Below, one piece after another: positions 10,006 through 55,222 of a stretch of DNA of 64,000 nt. The position numbers and the translations under genes are program-made. The DNA is from a virus. The stretch spans positions 11,175 to 75,174 of IMG/VR virus record IMGVR_UViG_3300031669_000016; one strand, 5' to 3'. Numbering within the stretch: the stretch's first letter is position 1; each line of letters opens with the position of its first letter. The notes under the pieces are model-generated. The model had not been told where the DNA came from. It made no database searches and saw only the letters and a list, made by a program, of their open reading frames with translations.

Positions 10006-13000
10006 CTGCCAAGCGCTCAATATTCCTATTTGCTCGGAATAGGCTTGGACCCGGTCACCGTCCAAAGGCTGCAGGCACAGCTAATCCAGCTCGCCCAGCA
10101 GGCCTCGAAAGTCGGTACGGCCCAGGCGCGTACCACTGTGGGTGTCACCCCACAGCAAACCACCGCAACCCAACGCGCCACACGTCAGGCCGCGGCTGGC
10201 TTTGCTACTACAAGTAAGCAGGCTACGCAGGCAACCCAAGCAGTCAAAGGCTTCGGTGGCGCGATGCAAGAGGCGGGTCGCGGAATCTCTCATGCCGCGG
10301 GCAAGGTCCTTCTGTGGAGCGTGGCAACAGGTGCGATCTACGGTTCACTGCAAGCCCTCCGCGGTGCTGTCGAGACCATCAACGACGTGGACTTCGCGTT
10401 GACTGGTTTGAGGAAGGTATACGCCGGAAACATCGCTGATCTCGGTCAGATGAAGAGGGCCGCGGTCGATATGGCGATGGCTTATGGTTCTGGAATCTCC
10501 GACGTCCTGAATGGTATGCGCGACTGGGCTCGGCAGGGCTACCGTGCTCGTGATGTAATCGAGTTGACAAGGGTTAGCTTGCTTGCCCAGAACATCGCCG
10601 AGATGGATGCTGTACAAGCAACCCGCTACTTGACGGCGGCCCTGAATCAGTTTGATCTTGAGGCCACTCAAGCAATTACTGTCCTCGACACGTGGAACGA
10701 ACTAAGCAACCGCTATGCCGCAACGACGCAGGACATCGCGGAAGGCACTGCCCGCCTCGGCCGCACCGCCCACGATGCTGGCCTCTCGATCCAAGAAGCC
10801 AGCGCGATGGTCGCCGTTCTAGTCGAGCAGACGAAGCGATCGGGCCAAGAAATCGGAACGGCGATGCGTACCGTTCTGACCTACGCCTATCGCGAGCGCA
10901 ACGTCAAAGAGCTTGAGAAGATCGGCATTTATGTTCGCCGTGAGCGGGGCGAACTGCTGGCTATGATGGACGTTTTGACGCAGCTATCTGTCAAGTGGGA
11001 GGTACTTAGCGATACCCAGCGTCAGGCCATTGCTGAAGCCTTCGGCGTGCGGCGGGTCACCGAGTTCCGGACCCTAATCCAGGGCATGCCCGCCATCCTT
11101 GAGGCGACGCGCATCGCGTATGACAGCCAAGGCTCCGCGTTGCGGGAGAACATCATCTTTCTGGATTCCCTGCAGGTCCGTTATGGGCGGTTGAAGGCCG
11201 CGCTTCAAGCACTCGCGGTCGGAACGGAAACGCAGGATACGTTGAAGAGCATTGTCAGCGTACTCACCAGCCTCGTTACCGTTGTCGATAAGGTTGGCAT
11301 CAAGACCATCTTCGCTGCGGGCGCTCTGGTTCTGATCACGCGCTACACCCAAGCCTACTCGGCCGCGCTGATTACGTTCCATACCCAAATGGTTTTGGGC
11401 ACACAAGCAGTAGCGGCAGGTACGGTGACAATGGCGGCATGGCAACTCCAGGTCAATGCTGCAACACTTGCCCTGCAGCGATTCTGGGTCACACTTGGTC
11501 CTGTTGGTTGGGCCGTGGCCGCTGTTGGTGTTGCTTTCGGGACTTGGAAGGCCATTGATGCTTATGTTTATCGCCATGAGCGTGCGGCACGTGGACTGGA
11601 GCGACAGGCCGAGGACATTGAGCAAACAACCCTGGAGGCGCTTCGCCGCGAAGAAGCTGGCTACCGCGCCCAGGTCGACGCGTTGACGCGGCGTGCCGAA
11701 CTGATCCAATCCTTACGTGATCAGTACGAAGCGGTTGGAAAGAGTACTGATAAGGCCGCGGACAAGCAAAAGCAGATGGCGAAGATCCTCGAACTGCTTC
11801 AAGCCGCAACGGGTGATGCCAGCTTAGCTTTACGCGACGGCTTAGCTCCCGCATTTGGCATCGTCGAGCGCGCCGCACAGAGCGCTCTTATCGGCATTAC
11901 CGATGCGATGGACAAGATGCGGGCCAGTATTGCCCAAACACTGCGGGGACAAATCCAGGGTATTAGGGGCGATATCGAACTGCGCAGAGATGCCGTCGAT
12001 AACTTTGCGAAGGCCGCGGAGAGAGAACGCAAGACGGTCCTTGGCATGTTCGACACTATTGCTAAGGGGCAGAAGCTGTATGTTGACCCCTTTGCCGGTG
12101 TGGATCGAAAAGATGCCGAGGCTGTGTTGTCTCGGACACATGAGATGAAGGATCTGTCCGGCCTGCAGACCGGTGTTACCAACAGGCTCAGCAATGCGGT
12201 GGGTGAGTACAACGTTGCGGCGGGTCGTCGAATCGAGTTGGAGGGTACACTCAAGACCACTGAACAAGCCCTACTCGAACTCGAAATGGAACGCGCCGAT
12301 CTTCCCAAAAGGATCGTATCGGATCCGGATCCGCTCGGCACTAAGAAAGCTGGTAAGAGCCTCCGCAGTTATCAGAATCAGGTCCGATCCGTTATCAATC
12401 TGGTACGCGAACTCCAACAGGCGATGCGGCGTATGGGCGCGGAAGGTCTCGGGCCGTGGTATCAAGAAATCCAACGCTTCGACCAGACTTGGGAGGATAT
12501 GCAGGACCGCGCGCTGATGGCGTTGGACCAGATCAATGAAACCTTGTCCGAAGATATCCCGGCACAGGCGCGCAAAGCCCTGCTTGGGGCACGTGACGAA
12601 CTGGTCGGCGTGCTCAACACCTTCGCTACTCAATATCCCCTAGAGTTCCAGCGCGCATGGGAACGTGCACTGCATATCATCCGCGGCGGTGCTGAGGCAT
12701 TACAGTTCCAGCTCCGTGAGTACCGCGAAGAGTTGGAGAAGACCCTAGCCGATTGGGTTCGGCGCGGTAAGATCACGCCCGACCAGGCAACGGAGATGCA
12801 ACGGCTCGCCACGCTGACCAAGCAATTCGAGGTCATCTCTAAGAGTGCCGATCTGCTGGAACGGCAGTACCAGTTCGAACGACAAATCACAGAACTCGAA
12901 ATGGGGAAGGGTTGGGAGTTCTCGCGTGAACGCGCCGAGATGTTGCGGCGTGATGTGGAGCAGGCCGCCGGCGCGTTGACCGCGTTACTACTGGCTGCTC

Positions 13001-26251: not shown

Positions 26252-26836
26252 TCATGGCTGAAGACGCTCCCTTACACGTTGGAGTCGACGCCGCGTCTTA
26301 CGCAGCACACGGTACAAGGCGGGATCCTTGGTTATTTCCTCGCCTGCCAACAAGCGCCCCAACGCATCCAATTCGATGTCTGTGAGATGTGCCTTGATGA
26401 AGATCTCCTCCAAAGCTATCCTGTCCAGAACTACCCGTTCTGGATCTGCCGAGCCATCAACACACAAGGTTTCGCGCTGGTTCTCATCAAAGTCTTCTAG
26501 CGCCACGATCTGCGGGATGCGATCGGTGCGGCTGTCTCGAAAAACTGAGCTGGGTATTCGTATCAGGAAGGAGTGGCGGAGCCGCCATTTCTGTATCGCT
26601 CGTGTTGCAGTCTTTTTCAGATAGGCCCCTTGCTGTGCCATCGGTCGTGTTGTGTCCAGTCGGTTGCGCACCGCATCCATAATTGCTACGCGGCCCACCT
26701 GCGCGAGGTCTTCCTGTTTGTCCCGATCAGTTGTGAGTCTGCGTGCCTCGCGCTGCAATACCTTGTCGAAGCATGCCAGCCAGTAGTCCAGTACGGCGGG
26801 ATCGTTGGTGCCGCGCTGTTTCGACTGACCAGCCAA
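26252..26836 (-). CDS. Phage sigma70-family sigma factor
   Basis: EDLAQVGRVAIMDAV (region 2), IRIP, and C-terminal LTDIE...HTH-like region 4. Confidence 0.75.
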   Translation of the reverse strand: MAGQSKQRGTNDPAVLDYWLACFDKVLQREARRLTTDRDKQEDLAQVGRVAIMDAVRNRLDTTRPMAQQGAYLKKTATRAIQKWRLRHSFLIRIPSSVFRDSRTDRIPQIVALEDFDENQRETLCVDGSADPERVVLDRIALEEIFIKAHLTDIELDALGRLLAGEEITKDPALYRVLRKTRRRLQRVRERLQP

Positions 26837-27727
26837 TCAGAACTCACCGCCATCCTTCCACTTCGTGGTGTAGTCAGCACCTACGGTAACTGGCAGTCGG
26901 GCCTGCCAACGCCCCCGCCAACGGTTGTAGTTGAGCGTATACATCAACTGATCGTAGTTCAGAAGGCCGGCCGGGAGCTCTCTGATGCCCAACCCTTCGG
27001 CGACTGCACGCGCCTGATCACCATAGGCAGGTTGGGAACCGGCCGCACCTCCACCATGGTCGGCTCGAATCGGTAAGGTGCGGATGTGCCATCCCGCTGC
27101 CAACCACGCACAGCAGACCTCGCGGTCGTACCAGTGATGGAGGCCGGGATAGTCCTGATCGAGAAGAGTTGGGATTGTGTCGGTACGATAGAAGATGCCG
27201 CAGCCGTCAAGAGTAGCCGAAGCCATTCCGTCATCAGGTGTCCACGCGCCATGGATGCGCCATATCTCACCGGTTCCGTTGCCCCCCCATTGCTTACCAA
27301 TCAGACGGGAGTGGGTACCGATACGCCCCCCATCCGGTGCCAGTCCGAACGCACCGACTAAACCGGCAAGGCCCAGCTTCGCATCTTCCTCGAAGGCGTG
27401 TGCGATACAAAGATCCCATCCGACATCCCAGATCAAGACATCGTAATGGATGAAGGCGAGGATGTCGGCATCGGTGTAGTCGGCGGCGTATCGGATCGAC
27501 TCGAAAACGCCCAAGCTTTGATCCGGCACGAAGTAGCGGGTGTGTCCCCGGTCTTTCGTGATGGTGCCGCAAAGTCCGGCATGCGTTGTAATCACGTCGA
27601 GATCAGGGGTGTTGTCGACAACAATGATCTCGGTGCCCGAATCGGAAACTGTCCGCACGACCTGAGCAAGACATGCCTCAAGTAGGTCTGTTCGACCAAG
27701 TACTGGAATCGCGACTGCGACCCTCAT
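26837..27727 (-). CDS. Glycosyltransferase, GT2
   Basis: VAIPV, IIVVDN, FIHYDV, LDG and HWYD motifs. Confidence 0.85.
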   Translation of the reverse strand: MRVAVAIPVLGRTDLLEACLAQVVRTVSDSGTEIIVVDNTPDLDVITTHAGLCGTITKDRGHTRYFVPDQSLGVFESIRYAADYTDADILAFIHYDVLIWDVGWDLCIAHAFEEDAKLGLAGLVGAFGLAPDGGRIGTHSRLIGKQWGGNGTGEIWRIHGAWTPDDGMASATLDGCGIFYRTDTIPTLLDQDYPGLHHWYDREVCCAWLAAGWHIRTLPIRADHGGGAAGSQPAYGDQARAVAEGLGIRELPAGLLNYDQLMYTLNYNRWRGRWQARLPVTVGADYTTKWKDGGEF

Positions 27728-27766
27728 CTAGTCTCACCCCGATGTATCCCACCAACAATCTACTAT

Positions 27767-27795
27767 AGTATACCACAGTACCTACGGGTTGTCAT
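27767..27795 (-). promoter_or_regulatory. Sigma70 promoter for the GT2-sigma-phosphatase operon
   Basis: ATGACA-17bp-TATACT with an extended TG. Confidence 0.7.
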
Positions 27796-27848
27796 CTTTG
27801 CATGCCTAGATCCTACCCATAATCGAAGATTTGAGGCGAAAGCTTCGA

Positions 27849-28226
27849 CCAGCATCCTCGCGCGCGTAGGAGTGACTGTGTGGTATACCATAGTAATCGT
27901 GCCCTCGCGCGCGTGGAAGTAACCAACAGTAAGGCGGCAACGGAACCGGCGAGGTCGTCGTGCCCTCGCGCGCGTGGAGGTAACGTGTGGCGCGTTGGGT
28001 TTCTGTGGTTTGCTGGTCGTGCCCTCGCGCGCGTGGGAGTAACGGCCAATATCCTACCCATCTTAGGCAACACATCGTCGTGCCCTCGCGTGCGTGGAAA
28101 TAACCGCCCTTGTTTCGTCACTGAAGGCGGTCCAACCGTCGTGCCCTCGCGCGCGAGGGAGTAACCCGGAGGCCGCCAGGAAGAGGGGGAATCCAGAGGT
28201 CGTGCCCTCGCGCGCGAGGGAGTAAC
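27849..28226 (-). CRISPR. CRISPR array: 6 full and 1 degenerate 28-bp repeats (GTTACTCCCTCGCGCGCGAGGGCACGAC) with 6 spacers
   Basis: Repeats at 28199-28226, 28138-28165, 28077-28104, 28016-28043, 27957-27984, 27896-27923 and degenerate 27849-27876. Spacers are 33, 33, 33, 31, 33 and 19 bp. Repeat stem CCCTCG/CGAGGG. Degeneracy increases leftward, placing the leader next to the effector. Confidence 0.96.
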
Positions 28227-28361
28227 ACTGCCATACCTATCGTCCAAACATGTTTCATCACAATCTCTACCCTCCCTGCGCGCGCCCCGGCGAGGCCGGG
28301 GATTAGGATTTGATCCGCGACCAGCCTTCTCCGGGCTGGTGGCAGGTCGGGGACCCACGAC
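28227..28361 (-). ncRNA. Candidate tracrRNA / leader
   Basis: Anti-repeat segments at 28356-28361 and 28272-28285; hairpins at 28320-28340 and 28285-28301. Confidence 0.5.
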
Positions 28362-29725
28362 TATTTAGCCCCCACTCTCAACGCTCCAAAGGAGCGGTGG
28401 AACCCTCGATAGCCTCCTGATGTATTCCACTCCGCCTTGCGATAAAACGCCCGCCGAGCGATGTTCACAGCAGCTGCCTCGTCGGCGTCGAAATTGACAT
28501 CACAAGCCGGACAGTAGAGATCTTCACCTTCCCGTTTGGCATCCTCCCCACACCGAGGACAAATCAACGATGAGTAAGCAGCGAAGACCTCGCGTGGTGG
28601 TAACATACCAGCCATCCGCAACTTGTAGCTGAGGATATGACCCATCTTGGCATACTGGGAACGTATAAATGCGCCGCTTGTCTGTAGGTTGAGATCTTCC
28701 ATCACTACCAACGAGTGGTGCTCAACGGCCAACGCAACCAACGCATTGGCGATTGTGTGGAGCATCTGCTCTTGGTGTCGACGCTGCCAGGCTTGACGAC
28801 GCACATGCCGACCACGCCTCTGTGCGGCCTGGCGCTTCCGTCCCAATAGGATCTGTAGAGGACGCACGTCCCGACCAAGGCTCCCAACTCTGAGTGGTCG
28901 ACCCTCTTTGTCTATGATTGCGTATGCCGCCTGTTTGATGATGCCGCGATCAACTCCAAGATAGGTTTCCTCTTCACCCCGCTCCATACTCTCGACTTGG
29001 AACTCGAAGCTTATATGTAGGAAGTACTCGCCATCGCGCCGACAAAGGCAGGCACAGCGCGCCTTCCCTTTCGTGAGATATTCCTCTTCGTGCCATATCC
29101 CAAACGCGAGTGGGAAACGCAACCTTGTAGGCTTCTGTGGCTTCGGCTGCACCGGTAGTGATACCACCCACTTCTCGTTGTCGAGTCGTTCGAGAGCAAA
29201 ATCTCGGGCGCGTACATAGAGAAGCGGCCTGACAATCTCGCGCTCCTCACGTAGCAGACGGGATTGCCACGCTTGGTGGTCGAATGGATCACCAACCCAC
29301 TCAGCGGCCTCTGCAAGGGCCTTCTGGTACCCATCAGACTGATATCCGTACAGTGGTGAGGGGTACTGGGGTTCATCAGTTGCGTCCTCATGGTTCTTCC
29401 TATCTTCCCAGGCCTGTCGTAGTTTGCAGTACGAAACAAGGTTCGTTAGGATATCTGATACTAAGCCGTCATATAGAGCGCTTGGCAAATCCGTTGCTGA
29501 TAGCAAAGGACGGATTTCCTTCATTGCATTGAAGGGGCTGGGGAGTCTCTTACCATCGTGGAGATCACGAATCCACAGATCAGCCATGGGGCGGCAGCGC
29601 TCCAATGTATCTATATAGGCCTTGCTGTAACGGGCGAATACCTGGTCTAGGAGGGCACGTTTTCCAGTACCGGGATTGTATAGTTTGAGGATGGCTGTTT
29701 TCTGTACGATGACTGTGCACCTCAT
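28361..29725 (-). CDS. Compact type V CRISPR effector (TnpB/Cas12f-like RuvC nuclease)
   Basis: 454 aa; RuvC-I YLGVDRG, RuvC-II VVMEDL, Zn finger CPRC...CPAC, RuvC-III DADEAAAVNIA; adjacent to the array. Confidence 0.88.
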   Translation of the reverse strand: MRCTVIVQKTAILKLYNPGTGKRALLDQVFARYSKAYIDTLERCRPMADLWIRDLHDGKRLPSPFNAMKEIRPLLSATDLPSALYDGLVSDILTNLVSYCKLRQAWEDRKNHEDATDEPQYPSPLYGYQSDGYQKALAEAAEWVGDPFDHQAWQSRLLREEREIVRPLLYVRARDFALERLDNEKWVVSLPVQPKPQKPTRLRFPLAFGIWHEEEYLTKGKARCACLCRRDGEYFLHISFEFQVESMERGEEETYLGVDRGIIKQAAYAIIDKEGRPLRVGSLGRDVRPLQILLGRKRQAAQRRGRHVRRQAWQRRHQEQMLHTIANALVALAVEHHSLVVMEDLNLQTSGAFIRSQYAKMGHILSYKLRMAGMLPPREVFAAYSSLICPRCGEDAKREGEDLYCPACDVNFDADEAAAVNIARRAFYRKAEWNTSGGYRGFHRSFGALRVGAK

Positions 29726-30037
29726 CTATTTCTTCATCAACCCTCGCTCTTCAAACAGTTTCTTGAGCTGGGTCCGCCACCAGCCCAACAGGCCATCCCG
29801 CAACAGCAGGGTGATGAGGCGGGCGACAACATAGGGGTGATGCGCCGCGATCCAGATCTGGTGCTGTAAGATCGGATAGGGTTCGGTGTCGTTGCTATGG
29901 GTTGCATCGACCTGGGCGGGGATGCAAACGCAGGCGTTGCAGACCATCGATTGCTTCGACCCATCAGGCCACGTTATCATAACGGTTACATAGCCTTCTT
30001 CTTCGAGTTGAACCGCTTTGAACTGGGACTCTGTCAT
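29726..30037 (-). CDS. Hypothetical protein, translationally coupled to the effector
   Basis: TAG-ATG junction with the effector gene. Confidence 0.6.
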   Translation of the reverse strand: MTESQFKAVQLEEEGYVTVMITWPDGSKQSMVCNACVCIPAQVDATHSNDTEPYPILQHQIWIAAHHPYVVARLITLLLRDGLLGWWRTQLKKLFEERGLMKK

Positions 30038-30693
30038 GCCTCATCTCCCACTACACATCGGCTCGCACCATCCACCTTACTAACCCCGATGATCTGAGCG
30101 CTTGACGGTGCGGAGTGATCCTCGTTTCCGGTGACGACAACGACCTGCATGCCGAGGTCTCTGGAGACACCTTCCAAGAAGTCTTCGATGACGGCGAGCG
30201 CACGCGCGCCGTGCACGTTGCGATAGGGTTCATCCAAGATGAGGACGCGGGGCAGGCGCAGGCGCAACACGAAGACGAGGCGCAACAGCACGGATTCGAC
30301 ATCGAGGACACCACCGCCATGGACCTCGGTGCCCCTACCCTCGATCCCATCGGCATCGACCGTTTCTAGATGGGCCTGGACCATGTTTCTGGATTGGTCG
30401 TACCGAAGTCGGAACTGCGCACCGGGACCGAGCAGGATACATAGTGCCTGGGTCAGGAGCGGCTCGATAATGTTCTTCAACCTATCCTGACTCAACGCGG
30501 CGGCTTGTTGAAGCAATGTTTGCGCCTTCAAGTACCAATCTGCTAGTGCTGTTTGCTCTGTGCGTGCGATTTGGTGCTGGCTTTCGGTCTGCTCAAGTAA
30601 GGCGCGGCGGCCTCGTGCCTGCTCGACCTGGCTGCGGCACCGACTCGCCCGTTGGATCAGGGTATTGAGGTCAACGACCGACAACGGTTTCAA
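30034..30693 (-). CDS. SbcC/Rad50-like ATPase, C-terminal half
   Basis: Coiled coil, HGGG signature, Walker B LILDEP, VVVVT. Confidence 0.8.
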   Translation of the reverse strand: MKPLSVVDLNTLIQRASRCRSQVEQARGRRALLEQTESQHQIARTEQTALADWYLKAQTLLQQAAALSQDRLKNIIEPLLTQALCILLGPGAQFRLRYDQSRNMVQAHLETVDADGIEGRGTEVHGGGVLDVESVLLRLVFVLRLRLPRVLILDEPYRNVHGARALAVIEDFLEGVSRDLGMQVVVVTGNEDHSAPSSAQIIGVSKVDGASRCVVGDEA

Positions 30694-31197: not shown

Positions 31198-32136
31198 TCA
31201 CCCCATTTGTAGTGTCTGCAATGCGAGATCGACGACTTCGCGTTCGACTTTGGCCTGCGCGGCCACGGTCTCTACGACTTGGACCACATCCATAGCAATG
31301 GTCTCGTCGGCCTCGATGGCTGCGAAATGATGGAGTAAGTCGCTGAACTGATCTGCTGTATAGCCAAGTGCTTCTGTTTCGTCGACCCAAACATCCGTTT
31401 TGAACGGGGGACACATCCACTCAACCGCAAGCGTTTCTAGATCAACGACGAGAAAAGTCGGTTTCCGCGTCATATCGCTTGGCGTGCGCGTCAGCCGTGC
31501 CAACGCACCGGGATTGATCGCCTGTCCCGTTTCGGTACGCTTATAAACGCCAGGATGGTAGTCGCCCAGCAGGAGGAGGGGAATATCGGGGAGATCCTGA
31601 ACGAGAACGTGGCCAAACGGTTTCGGCTTATCCACCACCATTTGGTGCGCGATCACGATGTCGGCCCGTCGTTGCCAGCCCTGAAGGGCTTCGGCGAGCT
31701 GTTCCTCGCCGCGATGACGGTAGTGCAGCGCGATAACACTACGACCCTCCAAATCGGTACGGTCCCTACCATTCCAACCGTTAGGAAGGACCCGGAAGAG
31801 GTCTCCCATCGCCTCGGCCAGAAGTCCGAGCATGCCTTCCCGGTATGTAGCGGCATTATGCCCGATGATGTCGTGTTGGCCCGGAATGACCCACCATGGA
31901 ATCGCGTACTTACGGATCAAAGCGGCGAGGCGCGTCCCCACGAGCGGTGGGGTTCGGCGTGGCGTATGGGTCAGATCACCACCACAGATCACAAGCCCAA
32001 TTCCATTCTGTTGACCCCAGGTTAGAATAGCTTCGACCTTGCGGAGCACTGCGTATAAGAAGCTGTCGTTACGGCCCACAGGCGATTCGGCCTGGAGGTG
32101 GAGGTCGGTGAGGTAGATGAAGCGCTGGATGCTCAT
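31198..32136 (-). CDS. SbcD/Mre11-like nuclease
   Basis: TDLHL, GGDL, PGQHD, AHQ, GDYH and NPGAL motifs. Confidence 0.88.
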   Translation of the reverse strand: MSIQRFIYLTDLHLQAESPVGRNDSFLYAVLRKVEAILTWGQQNGIGLVICGGDLTHTPRRTPPLVGTRLAALIRKYAIPWWVIPGQHDIIGHNAATYREGMLGLLAEAMGDLFRVLPNGWNGRDRTDLEGRSVIALHYRHRGEEQLAEALQGWQRRADIVIAHQMVVDKPKPFGHVLVQDLPDIPLLLLGDYHPGVYKRTETGQAINPGALARLTRTPSDMTRKPTFLVVDLETLAVEWMCPPFKTDVWVDETEALGYTADQFSDLLHHFAAIEADETIAMDVVQVVETVAAQAKVEREVVDLALQTLQMG

Positions 32137-33113
32137 TGTAAGGCCTCAAATGGGCGGCCACAGAGCGGACAGGCATCTACCGCGGCAAGTTCCTGGTCTA
32201 GTGCTTGAACCTCTGCCTCAGCGCTTTGTAGCGCGTGGTGGAGCCTTGTACGACGTTGCTGCCAGCCCAGATACCATTGCAGTGTCGTTCCCATCGCTTC
32301 GAGCCGCTGCGCAGTTATTCTGACACCCTCTAACCGTTGCGTAGTATCGTCTAGATCCAGGGCCAGTAGACGCTGGCCCACAGCCATGATTTGCTGTTTC
32401 CGCCGAGACCAGTCTGTGTACCAGTTCGTGAACTGCTCTACGGCTTGGAGCTGGCGTGTCGTATGGTTGATGAGCTGGAGCACGGCGTCAATAGACCCCA
32501 TGGTGTTATCAGCGAACGAGAGCCAGTTCAGCGCTGTAAGCTGCTCTCTGGTCGCTAAGAGTTGCTTATCCAACTCCTCGACTTGATGGCGTGCCCGTAA
32601 CGATTCGGTGTGGCATGTCCTGCCAGCCGCTTCCAAACGTTCCGCCTGGGTCAATATGCCGAGCTTGCGTTGGACCGCGGAGGGTGCATCGGCGAGTAGG
32701 AAGAGGGGGTCGTGCTGGAGCAGTAGGTTCACCGATTCGGGTTTGCCATCAAGTTCGACTTTGCGGAAACCGGTGGCGAGTTGGATCTCGTCAGGTACGT
32801 CCTTACCTATAGAGTCGAAGATGACGGGTTCACCTTCGGGACGTGTCAGTGTGTACCGATTCGTCTTGGTATCGCGCTCGCGGCAGACTGTGATGCCGTC
32901 TGCAAATGTGATGGTGACGGCGACATGACTAGTGCCGTTGCGGCAGAGAGATTGCCAGTTACCATCGCCGTAGAGACACCAACGTATGGCGCGGACAACA
33001 GCAGTCTTCCCACAGTTGGTCGGACCCCTCACGATGTTGAGGCCGGGCGCGAGTGTTAGGGCCGTGTCGGCGTGGGACTGGAAGTTCTTTAGTTCGATGC
33101 TGTGGATGGGTAT
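32133..33113 (-). CDS. SbcC/Rad50-like ATPase, N-terminal half (probable ATA start)
   Basis: In-frame extension IHSIELKNFQSH; Walker A GPTNCGKT; Q-loop QHDP; terminal zinc hook CPLCG. Confidence 0.85.
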   Translation of the reverse strand: MPIHSIELKNFQSHADTALTLAPGLNIVRGPTNCGKTAVVRAIRWCLYGDGNWQSLCRNGTSHVAVTITFADGITVCRERDTKTNRYTLTRPEGEPVIFDSIGKDVPDEIQLATGFRKVELDGKPESVNLLLQHDPLFLLADAPSAVQRKLGILTQAERLEAAGRTCHTESLRARHQVEELDKQLLATREQLTALNWLSFADNTMGSIDAVLQLINHTTRQLQAVEQFTNWYTDWSRRKQQIMAVGQRLLALDLDDTTQRLEGVRITAQRLEAMGTTLQWYLGWQQRRTRLHHALQSAEAEVQALDQELAAVDACPLCGRPFEALQ

Positions 33114-53901: not shown

Positions 53902-53947
53902 CCTTCTAAGCAGCGGGTCGCAGGTTCGAATCCTGCCGGGCGTGCCA
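53902..53947 (+). mobile_element. attP core: 3' half of tRNA-Arg(TCT)
   Basis: CTTCTAA anticodon loop, GCAGG-TTCGAAT-CCTGC T-arm and CGGGCGTGCCA end; the 5' half is absent; adjacent to the integrase. Confidence 0.85.
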
Positions 53948-54049: not shown

Positions 54050-54073
54050 TTGCTACGCTGCCTAGGAGGATGT

Positions 54074-55222
54074 ATGCGAGCCGAACCGCGGCGCACCGCC
54101 GTTACGCTTGATGATCTCACCGCTTCGGTTGTGCCAGAACTGGTTGTCGAAACCACACCAAGTTGGGACCTGATGCTGGACCGTTACCTTCAGTGGCGAC
54201 AAGTCCAGGGCTTGTCGGCGGGGACGCGTCGGATCGATCAGCTCCAGTTGCAGCGGCTGGCTACATGGTGCGCCGCGCATGGCGTCACGACCGCTGTTAC
54301 ACGACAAGCTGTTGGTGACTACATCGTCGAACTTGATGGCAGGCTGTCCGCACGCGGCGTAAACATGGCGCTGCAGACCGCGCAGAGCTTTGGCGACTGG
54401 ATGATAGCGGAGGCGGTATGGACGACAAATCCGTTCCGTTCGATTCGGAAGCGACGCGAGCCGCGGCGCGGAGCGCCGGCAGGACTCAAACCACACGAAC
54501 TGTCCCAGCTGTTGGCCGCGCCAAACCGGGATAGGCCCGGTGGGCTGCGCGACTACCTCATGCTCTACATCGCCGCGTTCTGTGGACTGCGCATCGGCGA
54601 ACTTTGTTACCTCCGCGCCTCTGATCTGAATATGGCGGAGTGCTGGCTGCGTGTAGCCGCGGAAACCGCGAAGACCCGGACGGAGCGGCGGGTCTGGCTG
54701 CCACACAAAGAAGATAGACGCGGCCGCCACCTCCTTCCCGAGTTCGCCGAGCCGCTCGACCTCTGGCTTGCCTACCGTGCCCAGTATGATATCGACGATG
54801 ATGCTCCTCTCTTCGTCAACTGCTCTCGGCATCCGAACCACGCCGCGCCTGGTAGTGCGGTCGATACGGACGTGCTACGCATGAACCTGCGCCGCTATGC
54901 CACAAAGGCTGGACTCCCGCCGACGCGCTGCTCGCCCCACAAACTGAGACATACCGCGGGTTACCTGATGGGACGTGGCGGACTGACCGGACAGGTCATG
55001 CCACCGCAAGATATTATGCGTCAGCTCGGACATTGCACCCTCACCATGGCTATGCACTACGCTAAGGGCGACGAAGACGATGTACGCCGCAGCTTTGCCG
55101 CCGCTGCTGTTACCGGTACGGTCGACGTGCCGACGCGTCATCGGGTGCGTGTCGACTCGCCGCGTGGGATCCTGGCTCGACTTGAGCGCGCCGAGGAGCG
55201 CGTCGCCGAGCTGGAGCGGTAG
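54074..55222 (+). CDS. int: Tyrosine integrase
   Basis: GLRIGEL, AKT, HKLRH, LGH and HYA motifs; AGGAGG RBS; next to attP. Confidence 0.92.
   Translation: MRAEPRRTAVTLDDLTASVVPELVVETTPSWDLMLDRYLQWRQVQGLSAGTRRIDQLQLQRLATWCAAHGVTTAVTRQAVGDYIVELDGRLSARGVNMALQTAQSFGDWMIAEAVWTTNPFRSIRKRREPRRGAPAGLKPHELSQLLAAPNRDRPGGLRDYLMLYIAAFCGLRIGELCYLRASDLNMAECWLRVAAETAKTRTERRVWLPHKEDRRGRHLLPEFAEPLDLWLAYRAQYDIDDDAPLFVNCSRHPNHAAPGSAVDTDVLRMNLRRYATKAGLPPTRCSPHKLRHTAGYLMGRGGLTGQVMPPQDIMRQLGHCTLTMAMHYAKGDEDDVRRSFAAAAVTGTVDVPTRHRVRVDSPRGILARLERAEERVAELER

Follow-up and report, generated by a model that had tools for sequence, protein, structure and literature searches.

A probable stand-alone type V CRISPR cassette of the Cas12f kind in a phage genome

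Positions 27849-29725 of a 64,000-nucleotide (nt) stretch of virus DNA carry a gene for a compact Cas12f-like effector, a candidate guide-RNA scaffold and a CRISPR array. This stretch, hereafter the window, comprises bases 11175-75174 of the IMG/VR virus record IMGVR_UViG_3300031669_000016, which is 75,174 bp long and about 81% complete according to CheckV. An initial annotation, made from the letters alone, had read the locus as a phage-encoded miniature type V CRISPR-Cas system. Here, we describe the parts of the locus, their conservation among homologues and their relation to known compact type V systems. The parts are the following.

28361-29725, minus strand: cas12f-like effector gene of 454 amino acids (open reading frame (ORF) with translation, Pfam TNB domain, AlphaFold model)
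28260-28363, minus strand: candidate trans-activating CRISPR RNA (tracrRNA), which starts at the stop codon with 5' GUCGUG and has an approximate 3' end
28227-28259, minus strand: leader-like, A+T-richer stretch that separates the anti-repeat from the first repeat
27849-28226, minus strand: CRISPR array of seven 28-nt repeats and six spacers, co-oriented with the effector gene

The effector, its array and a candidate tracrRNA

The effector is laid out as a WED/REC N-terminal half, a split RuvC domain and a C4 zinc-ribbon TNB domain. The three RuvC acidic residues and the zinc finger pointed out in the initial annotation are all present. Moreover, in an alignment of 27 family members (31-61% identical to the query), the RuvC triad of D259 (GVDRG), E343 (MEDL) and D415 (DADE) is invariant, as are the zinc cysteines C389/C392/C405/C408, and the N-terminal half is likewise conserved. 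Searches with profile hidden Markov models place the protein in no curated family. That is, none of the Cas12/TnpB models reaches its cut-off for the 454-amino-acid protein: the best of the NCBIfam ranking is Cas12e (88.9 bits, cut-off 200), and guided_TnpB (70.8 bits, cut-off 100), CRISPR_Cas12f2 (68 bits, cut-off 450; 62-104 bits for the relatives), IS607_TnpB (31.9 bits, cut-off 350) and IS200_TnpB (30.6 bits, cut-off 425) also fall short. The relatives stay below the model cut-offs as well, except for a generic TnpB-superfamily model in a few of them. Among Pfam domains, only the generic TNB domain passes (Cas12f1-like_TNB, E 3.7e-10), accompanied by a weak RuvC match.

Structure prediction was more informative about the fold. 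The AlphaFold2 model (predicted local distance difference test score of 84) matches the solved Cas12f structures over its full length, with AsCas12f at Z 22.1 (root mean square deviation 5.0, 363 residues aligned, model residues 7-441), SpCas12f1 at Z 21.6 and OsCas12f at Z 21.2; ISDra2 TnpB (Z 19.1) and Cas12e (Z 15-17) match too, and Foldseek against the Cas12f group structures gives an E-value of 2e-18. The initial annotation had called the N-terminal half unusual. This holds for its sequence but not for its fold: given the full-length structural alignment with solved Cas12f/TnpB structures, and the AsCas12f alignment over residues 7-441 in particular, the modelled N-terminal half is an ordinary WED/REC unit of the Cas12f/TnpB kind, diverged in sequence.

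The array begins 134 nt after the stop codon, 1 nt short of the 135 bp first reported for a co-oriented array of 28-bp palindromic repeats. Its spacers measure 33, 33, 33, 31, 33 and 19 nt, and its repeat copies are spaced 47-61 nt apart. The two gene-proximal repeats are identical and perfectly palindromic, four others carry one to five changes (in the 5' half only) and the last is degenerate. When up to three mismatches are allowed, the repeat is found in five copies versus none expected from shuffles; Tandem Repeats Finder reported nothing for the array, as expected for repeats separated by unique spacers. Across the family, the 3' half of the repeat is invariant and ends in GAC. Because the repeats decay at the far end, the leader lies on the gene side, and this decay together with the invariant 3' half fixes the orientation of the array. 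The leader-like stretch carries deletions in a variant contig of soil run X5. Cellular homologues (L042, L043, L045-L049 and L066) carry a leader-end motif, GCAAAC/GCGAAC...GTT, within the ~18 nt that immediately precede their first repeat; the GCAAAC..GTT motif is not present at this place in the phage array.

The original account of the locus contained no tracrRNA and has to be amended in this respect, as a conserved, covarying RNA is seen between gene and array. The candidate tracrRNA consists of a long stem, a hairpin (CCCGGC-CUC-GCCGGG) and a terminal anti-repeat (GCGCGCAGGGAGGG), and the intergenic RNA is conserved among the close loci (12 loci). In its scaffold, RNAalifold finds 8 of 21 pairs to be compensatory. 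In most loci, for example, the hairpin with the invariant loop has the sequence CCGUGC-CUC-GCACGG; the window has CCCGGC-CUC-GCCGGG and L068 has CGCGC-CUC-GCGCG. Both ends of the RNA follow the repeat. The anti-repeat at the 3' end varies along with the 5' half of the repeat. At the other end, pairing of the 5' hexamer with the repeat's 3' end holds in 60 of 60 cells of the close clade; three of its six pairs are compensatory (double changes), and the pairing score was reached by none of 500 shuffles. The hexamer/repeat pairs seen across loci are GUCACA/UGUGAC, GUCGUA/UACGAC, GUCGUG/CACGAC, GUCUCA/UGAGAC and GCCUCA/UGAGGC. The hexamer of the distant clade sits in a hairpin loop and again tracks the repeat (GUCACA/UGUGAC, GUCUCA/UGAGAC, GCCUCA/UGAGGC). 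A strict match of the hexamer to the repeat of its own locus occurs in 13 of 21 loci, compared to 6 of 168 cross-pairings, and cofolding of five loci, which represent three different repeat types, returns the same bipartite repeat:RNA design.

From these comparisons, the system is most likely tracrRNA-dependent. Rfam reports no family within 27600-28500. The splitting of an omega-RNA into tracrRNA and CRISPR RNA (crRNA) has been discussed for TranC systems (bioRxiv 10.64898/2026.03.27.714800); the design of the candidate tracrRNA appears to be that of Cas12f single-guide RNAs (sgRNAs) and TnpB omega-RNAs, and fits this route. As a separate observation, one assembly unitig, at 28271-28382, spans the 5' half of the tracrRNA and the final 22 nt of the gene. 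It is about four times as deep as its neighbours (326 versus 82 and 554 versus 161), and its end at 28382 is loose; the segment is therefore also present in other, more abundant DNA of the same soils.

Homologues, genomic surroundings and a sibling phage

Sequence searches yielded ~35 strong full-length relatives, with loci taken from IMG/VR, GTDB genomes and JGI metagenomes. In the clade with 56-64% identity, a co-oriented array follows 170-300 nt after the gene in all nine loci whose downstream flank extends to 300 nt or more. In the 29-34% clade, an array is found in 11 loci, two of these on shorter flanks. This recurrence of arrays beside the homologues speaks against a protein nested among array-less IS605/IS607 TnpBs, which the initial annotation had named as a refutation. 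A strict array test is negative for L051, L063, L069, L070 and L002. Some distant loci instead show a single repeat and one guide-like stretch without a second repeat (L069:1230-1275, L078:445-480, L070:2150-2190), L051 has a tracr-like scaffold and no repeat (L051:7420-7560), and L063 is also array-less. These single-repeat and array-less members may represent omega-RNA-like or mini-array stages.

The family extends into cultured systems and bacterial genomes. Among 401 genomes of Armatimonadota, the five best matches (L125-L129, ~500 amino acids, E 1e-37 to 1e-53) all have adjacent arrays, and five of the weaker, mostly shorter TnpB-like matches (L130-L134, open frames of 373-451 amino acids, E ~1e-22) have none. 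Cultured Salinibacter ruber M8 phages also have a full-length homologue (28% identity), present in 182 GenBank genomes. In OR896293.1 (L123, 33604-36100), it is 500 amino acids long, annotated as 'hypothetical protein' and keeps the D-E-D triad; an array of 6-7 repeats of ~30 nt with a period of 66 lies ~550 nt downstream of the gene. Neither homologue nor array is mentioned in what is apparently the isolation paper of the M8 viruses (PMC11631230), which uses 'CRISPR' once, in relation to protospacers, and whose text does not contain the accession prefix OR896.

The surroundings of the cassette are not shared. None of the window's neighbouring genes, including a sigma-like gene, recurs beside any homologue, and two close homologue loci lie in cellular contexts among ordinary cellular genes. 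For these two reasons, and as far as genomic context tells, the module is self-contained and able to move from one context to another. Within each subclade, the spacers are of uniform length (33 nt beside 28-nt repeats and ~30 nt beside 36-nt repeats), and no spacer is common to more than one locus; this indicates ruler-type acquisition by machinery not encoded in the loci.

Altogether, the conserved array linkage, the covarying tracrRNA, the invariant residues and the TnpB models far below cut-off support a genuine RNA-guided type V system, as opposed to an insertion sequence (IS)-borne TnpB beside a chance repeat. The same comparative evidence (array linkage, covariation and invariant residues) favours the earlier proposal that the protein would act as an RNA-guided nuclease.

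A natural comparison is provided by a sibling phage, whose contigs from four soil-metagenome runs were aligned to 27400-30100 and define the cassette as a unit.

27795-29731, minus strand: whole cassette as insertion/deletion unit, in place of which the sibling phage has 31 other bases

In all four runs, position 27794 is followed in the sibling contig by 31 unrelated bases and then by 29732. The sibling lacks exactly the effector, tracrRNA and array, and it keeps the promoter-like site of the next operon; the ORF upstream of the effector is also kept, with a different C-terminal tail. Its flank shows 47 differences and six gaps over 355 bases (~87% identical). Word depth taken from contigs, which is a rough guide only, is 7 for the sibling versus 82-89 for the cassette contigs in one run, 14 versus 161-175 in another and about equal in the other two.

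The phage genome around the cassette has a structural module on the plus strand, including a 1566-amino-acid tape-measure-like ORF, after which a long minus-strand block holds SbcCD-like, exonuclease, glycosyltransferase, phosphatase-like and sigma-like genes. Two neighbours are of particular relevance below.

29726-30037, minus strand: upstream ORF of 103 amino acids, whose TAG directly abuts the effector ATG
26252-26836: sigma-70 region-2-like gene, two genes downstream of the cassette

The effector gene had been described as TAG-ATG coupled and embedded in a replication operon. The coupling stands, and the attribution to replication does not, since the neighbours are SbcCD-like/exonuclease genes of DNA metabolism. 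There is no promoter-like site of the cassette's own upstream of the effector gene. Just outside the cassette, a promoter-like site (ATGACA-17-TATACT, 27795-27767, minus strand) heads the operon with the glycosyltransferase family 2 (GT2) and sigma-like genes. The absence of tnpA, cas1, cas2 and cas4, first noted for the window, extends to the whole 75,174-bp record: searches for Cas1, Cas2, Cas4, the Y1 transposase (PF01797) and resolvase (PF00239) gave no match there and did give matches in positive-control genomes. The effector gene is present as a single copy in the record. Elsewhere in the genome, an SbcC-like ATPase is apparently split in two: its N-terminal AAA_23 portion lies at 32133-33032 and its C-terminal ATPase portion at 30034-30693, on either side of an SbcD-like phosphoesterase (31198-32136) and a 149-amino-acid ORF. 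The first ORF of the record (683 amino acids) has no match in GenBank phages.

Spacer matches, proposed mechanism and competing readings

Two spacers match sites in the genome that carries them.

10150-10183, plus strand: near-self protospacer in the gene for the 1566-amino-acid tape-measure-like protein, matched by spacer 27985-28015 at 29/31
27260-27295, plus strand: weaker near-self protospacer in the adjacent GT2 gene, matched at 22/33, with an exact core of 14 nt, by spacer 27924-27956

No match as good as the tape-measure protospacer is expected by chance (0 expected). Its mismatches fall at guide positions 12 and 14; one is synonymous and the other an Ala/Glu change. Both near-self protospacers are preceded by 5'-CCA, and a spacer of a 33% relative (L062) matches its own contig at 34/35 with the 5' flank GCC. 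Searches of IMG/VR with the tape-measure spacer (N at the two mismatches) and with the first 22 nt of the newest spacer gave no match, and an IMG/VR search for relatives of the tape-measure N-terminus was likewise negative. These near-self sites suggest that the spacers may derive from close relatives, with mismatches that would protect the carrier, which points to inter-phage competition. Two other matches were noted. A 16-nt match of an L059 spacer beside the tape-measure protospacer is compatible with chance and was set aside. The first spacer of L066 matches 53918-53937 at 19/20, just upstream of a 390-amino-acid ORF (54050-55222); because this stretch resembles a tRNA T-arm (GGTTCGAGTCC), the match says little about targeting.

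Overall, the locus likely represents a type V cassette of the Cas12f kind that stands alone, depends on a tracrRNA and forms an accessory module of a temperate-looking soil phage. In the mechanism we propose, the effector gene would be read through from the upstream DNA-metabolism operon, and the same transcript would continue into the ~100-nt tracrRNA (from the stop codon on), a short leader and the array. The GUCGUG at the 5' end of the tracrRNA would pair with CACGAC, the spacer-adjacent 3' end of the repeat, in a pseudoknot-like contact of the type known from the TnpB omega-RNA and the Cas12f sgRNA; the 3' anti-repeat of the tracrRNA would pair with the repeat 5' half. The 454-amino-acid protein would then bind this dual RNA, and its intact RuvC domain would cut spacer-complementary DNA that has a 5' C-rich protospacer-adjacent motif (PAM), provisionally CCA. 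The likely targets would be closely related phages, in the course of superinfection exclusion or inter-phage competition, and the genome of the carrier itself would be spared by mismatches in the seed. Any further spacers, should acquisition still occur, would come from host adaptation machinery acting in trans.

Several points weigh against this reading. No exact target was found for any spacer, and the CCA motif is provisional, as it comes from two near-self sites of which one is weak (22/33). With five of seven repeats mutated and the cellular leader motif missing, the array may be old and static. The covariation rests on few independent haplotypes and on DNA only, the boundaries of the candidate tracrRNA are approximate, and no RNA sequencing run is listed as containing the locus.

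An RNA-guided DNA binder or regulator, in the manner of CRISPR interference or of dCas12f-sigmaE, is an unlikely alternative that nonetheless draws on specific features of the locus. The protein would, for example, tune the promoter of the downstream glycosyltransferase/sigma-factor operon. The 19-nt terminal spacer (27877-27895) matches at 16/17 a site, 27761-27777, that covers the -10/start region of the promoter-like site, the sigma-70 region-2-like gene lies only two genes downstream, and exapted Cas12f homologues are known to drive transcription with sigmaE (PMC13472631). Yet the published systems are nuclease-dead and the RuvC triad is intact and invariant here; the window's neighbours, the sigma gene included, recur beside no homologue. 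The promoter match itself also differs from the near-self sites, as its 5' flank is ATC, not CCA, and the spacer in question adjoins the decayed end of the array.

It is highly improbable that the array is a phage mimic of a host type I-E-like array, serving host Cas proteins, and that the TnpB-like gene is unrelated and uses an omega-RNA of its own. Virus-borne mini-arrays are known, the record holds no adaptation genes, and the repeat length, palindromic core and 28+33 period (61 nt) resemble those of I-E arrays. Against this reading, the intergenic RNA is complementary to the repeat at either end, with a 5' hexamer that changes with the repeat across loci, and the gene-array distance and orientation are kept in cellular and viral contexts alike. 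Furthermore, to judge by repeat decay, the leader is on the side of the gene, which is the reverse of the I-E reading, and the sibling phage is without both gene and array together.

Equally slight is the chance that the cassette is a decaying relic, captured from a bacterial chromosome and non-functional in the phage: the distal repeats are mutated, the last spacer is truncated, the conserved leader motif is lost and two close homologue loci have cellular-looking contexts, but the ORF is intact with all invariant family residues, the tracrRNA helices are maintained by compensatory changes, the two leader-proximal repeats are perfect and, as a rough guide, the cassette contigs have ~11 times the word depth of the cassette-less sibling in two runs.

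Relation to known systems and significance

The stand-alone Cas12f-type cassette that we favour has its closest structural counterparts in the type V-F group, that is, AsCas12f, OsCas12f and SpCas12f1 (PDB 7wju, 8dzj, 8j12, 9nzq, 9i8y). The phage system shares with this group the size class (~420-460 amino acids), the full-length fold (Z 21-22, 360-369 residues aligned) with split RuvC and zinc-ribbon TNB, a tracrRNA between gene and array with two repeat:anti-repeat contacts, and the absence of adaptation genes, which holds for many V-F loci. It differs in sequence, with only 15-17% identity and a family-profile match (E 1e-18) over the C-terminal 60% only, in its 28-nt repeats (theirs are ~36-37 nt) and in a tracrRNA that starts at the stop codon. 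The V-F group includes members with C-rich PAMs (CnCas12f1).

Other families resemble parts of the system. Cas12e (CasX, V-E) gives the best sequence-profile match of the RuvC/TNB half (88.9 bits; PDB E 1e-20) and is tracrRNA-dependent too, with a weaker structural match (Z 15-17). An identity with Cas12e was rejected: those proteins are ~880-990 amino acids long and come with further domains and with cas1/2/4, the alignment is confined to the RuvC/TNB part, and its score falls short of the 200-bit cut-off. The IS200/IS605 TnpB of ISDra2 (PDB 8h1j, 8exa) shares the fold (Z 17.5-19), and its guide scaffold, like that of the phage system, begins at the 3' end of the gene and makes a pseudoknot-type contact beside the guide. 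We rejected an IS200/IS605 or IS607 TnpB identity in view of the missing TnpA/resolvase, the single copy, the multi-spacer array, the split guide RNA and the models below cut-off. The TranC systems and the V-U* variants of Altae-Tran et al. (2023), compared here by description, have TnpB-sized effectors, short arrays and a tracrRNA from a split omega-RNA; the wider family of the phage protein likewise has one-repeat-one-guide (L069, L070, L078) and array-less (L051, L063) members. For LaTranC, the match is weak only (E 1e-4).

Phage-borne compact type V systems are already established. CasPhi/Cas12j, Cas-lambda and Cas12p are compact, lack adaptation genes and are thought to target competing elements, as proposed here. 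They are larger, however, at 700-800 versus 454 amino acids, and the two that appear among the structural matches are more distant (CasPhi Z 14; Cas12p Foldseek TM 0.38). CasPhi and Cas-lambda are tracrRNA-free. Cas-delta (PMC12721324) was excluded, being 867-936 amino acids long and tracrRNA-free, and so was the dCas12f-sigmaE system, given that the effector triad is intact here and the sigma-like gene stands beside no homologue.

In function and fold, the system is of the Cas12f type, and its sequence falls in no curated family, with the TranC/V-U* clades compared by description. How this should be read in evolutionary terms depends on the breadth of V-F, a heterogeneous group found on several branches of the tree; independent TnpB-to-type-V events number ~50 so far, with more expected (PMC10691335, PMC12669027), and many TranC clades have been catalogued (bioRxiv 10.64898/2026.03.27.714800). 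We advance only tentatively, as the less probable case, that the clade is a separate, uncatalogued domestication of a TnpB-like protein, whose 1.9-kb cassette would move between bacterial chromosomes and phages and serve as a weapon against unarmed co-occurring soil siblings. The hallmarks we would propose for such a lineage are effectors of ~450-500 amino acids, a tracrRNA from the stop codon, a range from solo repeat-plus-guide to full arrays and, in one subclade, 28+33 units of type I-E size, which would hint at the use of a host's adaptation machinery. In any case, the system stands out by a cassette that one of two co-occurring siblings carries and the other lacks, by near-self spacers whose matched sites have a C-rich flank, by the stop-codon start of the tracrRNA, by the solo-guide-to-array range and by its relatives in cultured Salinibacter phages.

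The locus adds a very small, well-delimited system (1.9 kb including guide RNAs) that is apparently cleavage-competent and has a probable non-T-rich PAM. The armed and unarmed sibling phages form a natural pair in the same soils, which makes the proposed role of virus-borne CRISPR in phage-phage competition directly testable, and the Salinibacter ruber M8 phages, with their unannotated homologue and array, provide a culturable system. In addition, the family range from solo guide through mini-array to full array offers material on how an omega-RNA is split into tracrRNA and crRNA.

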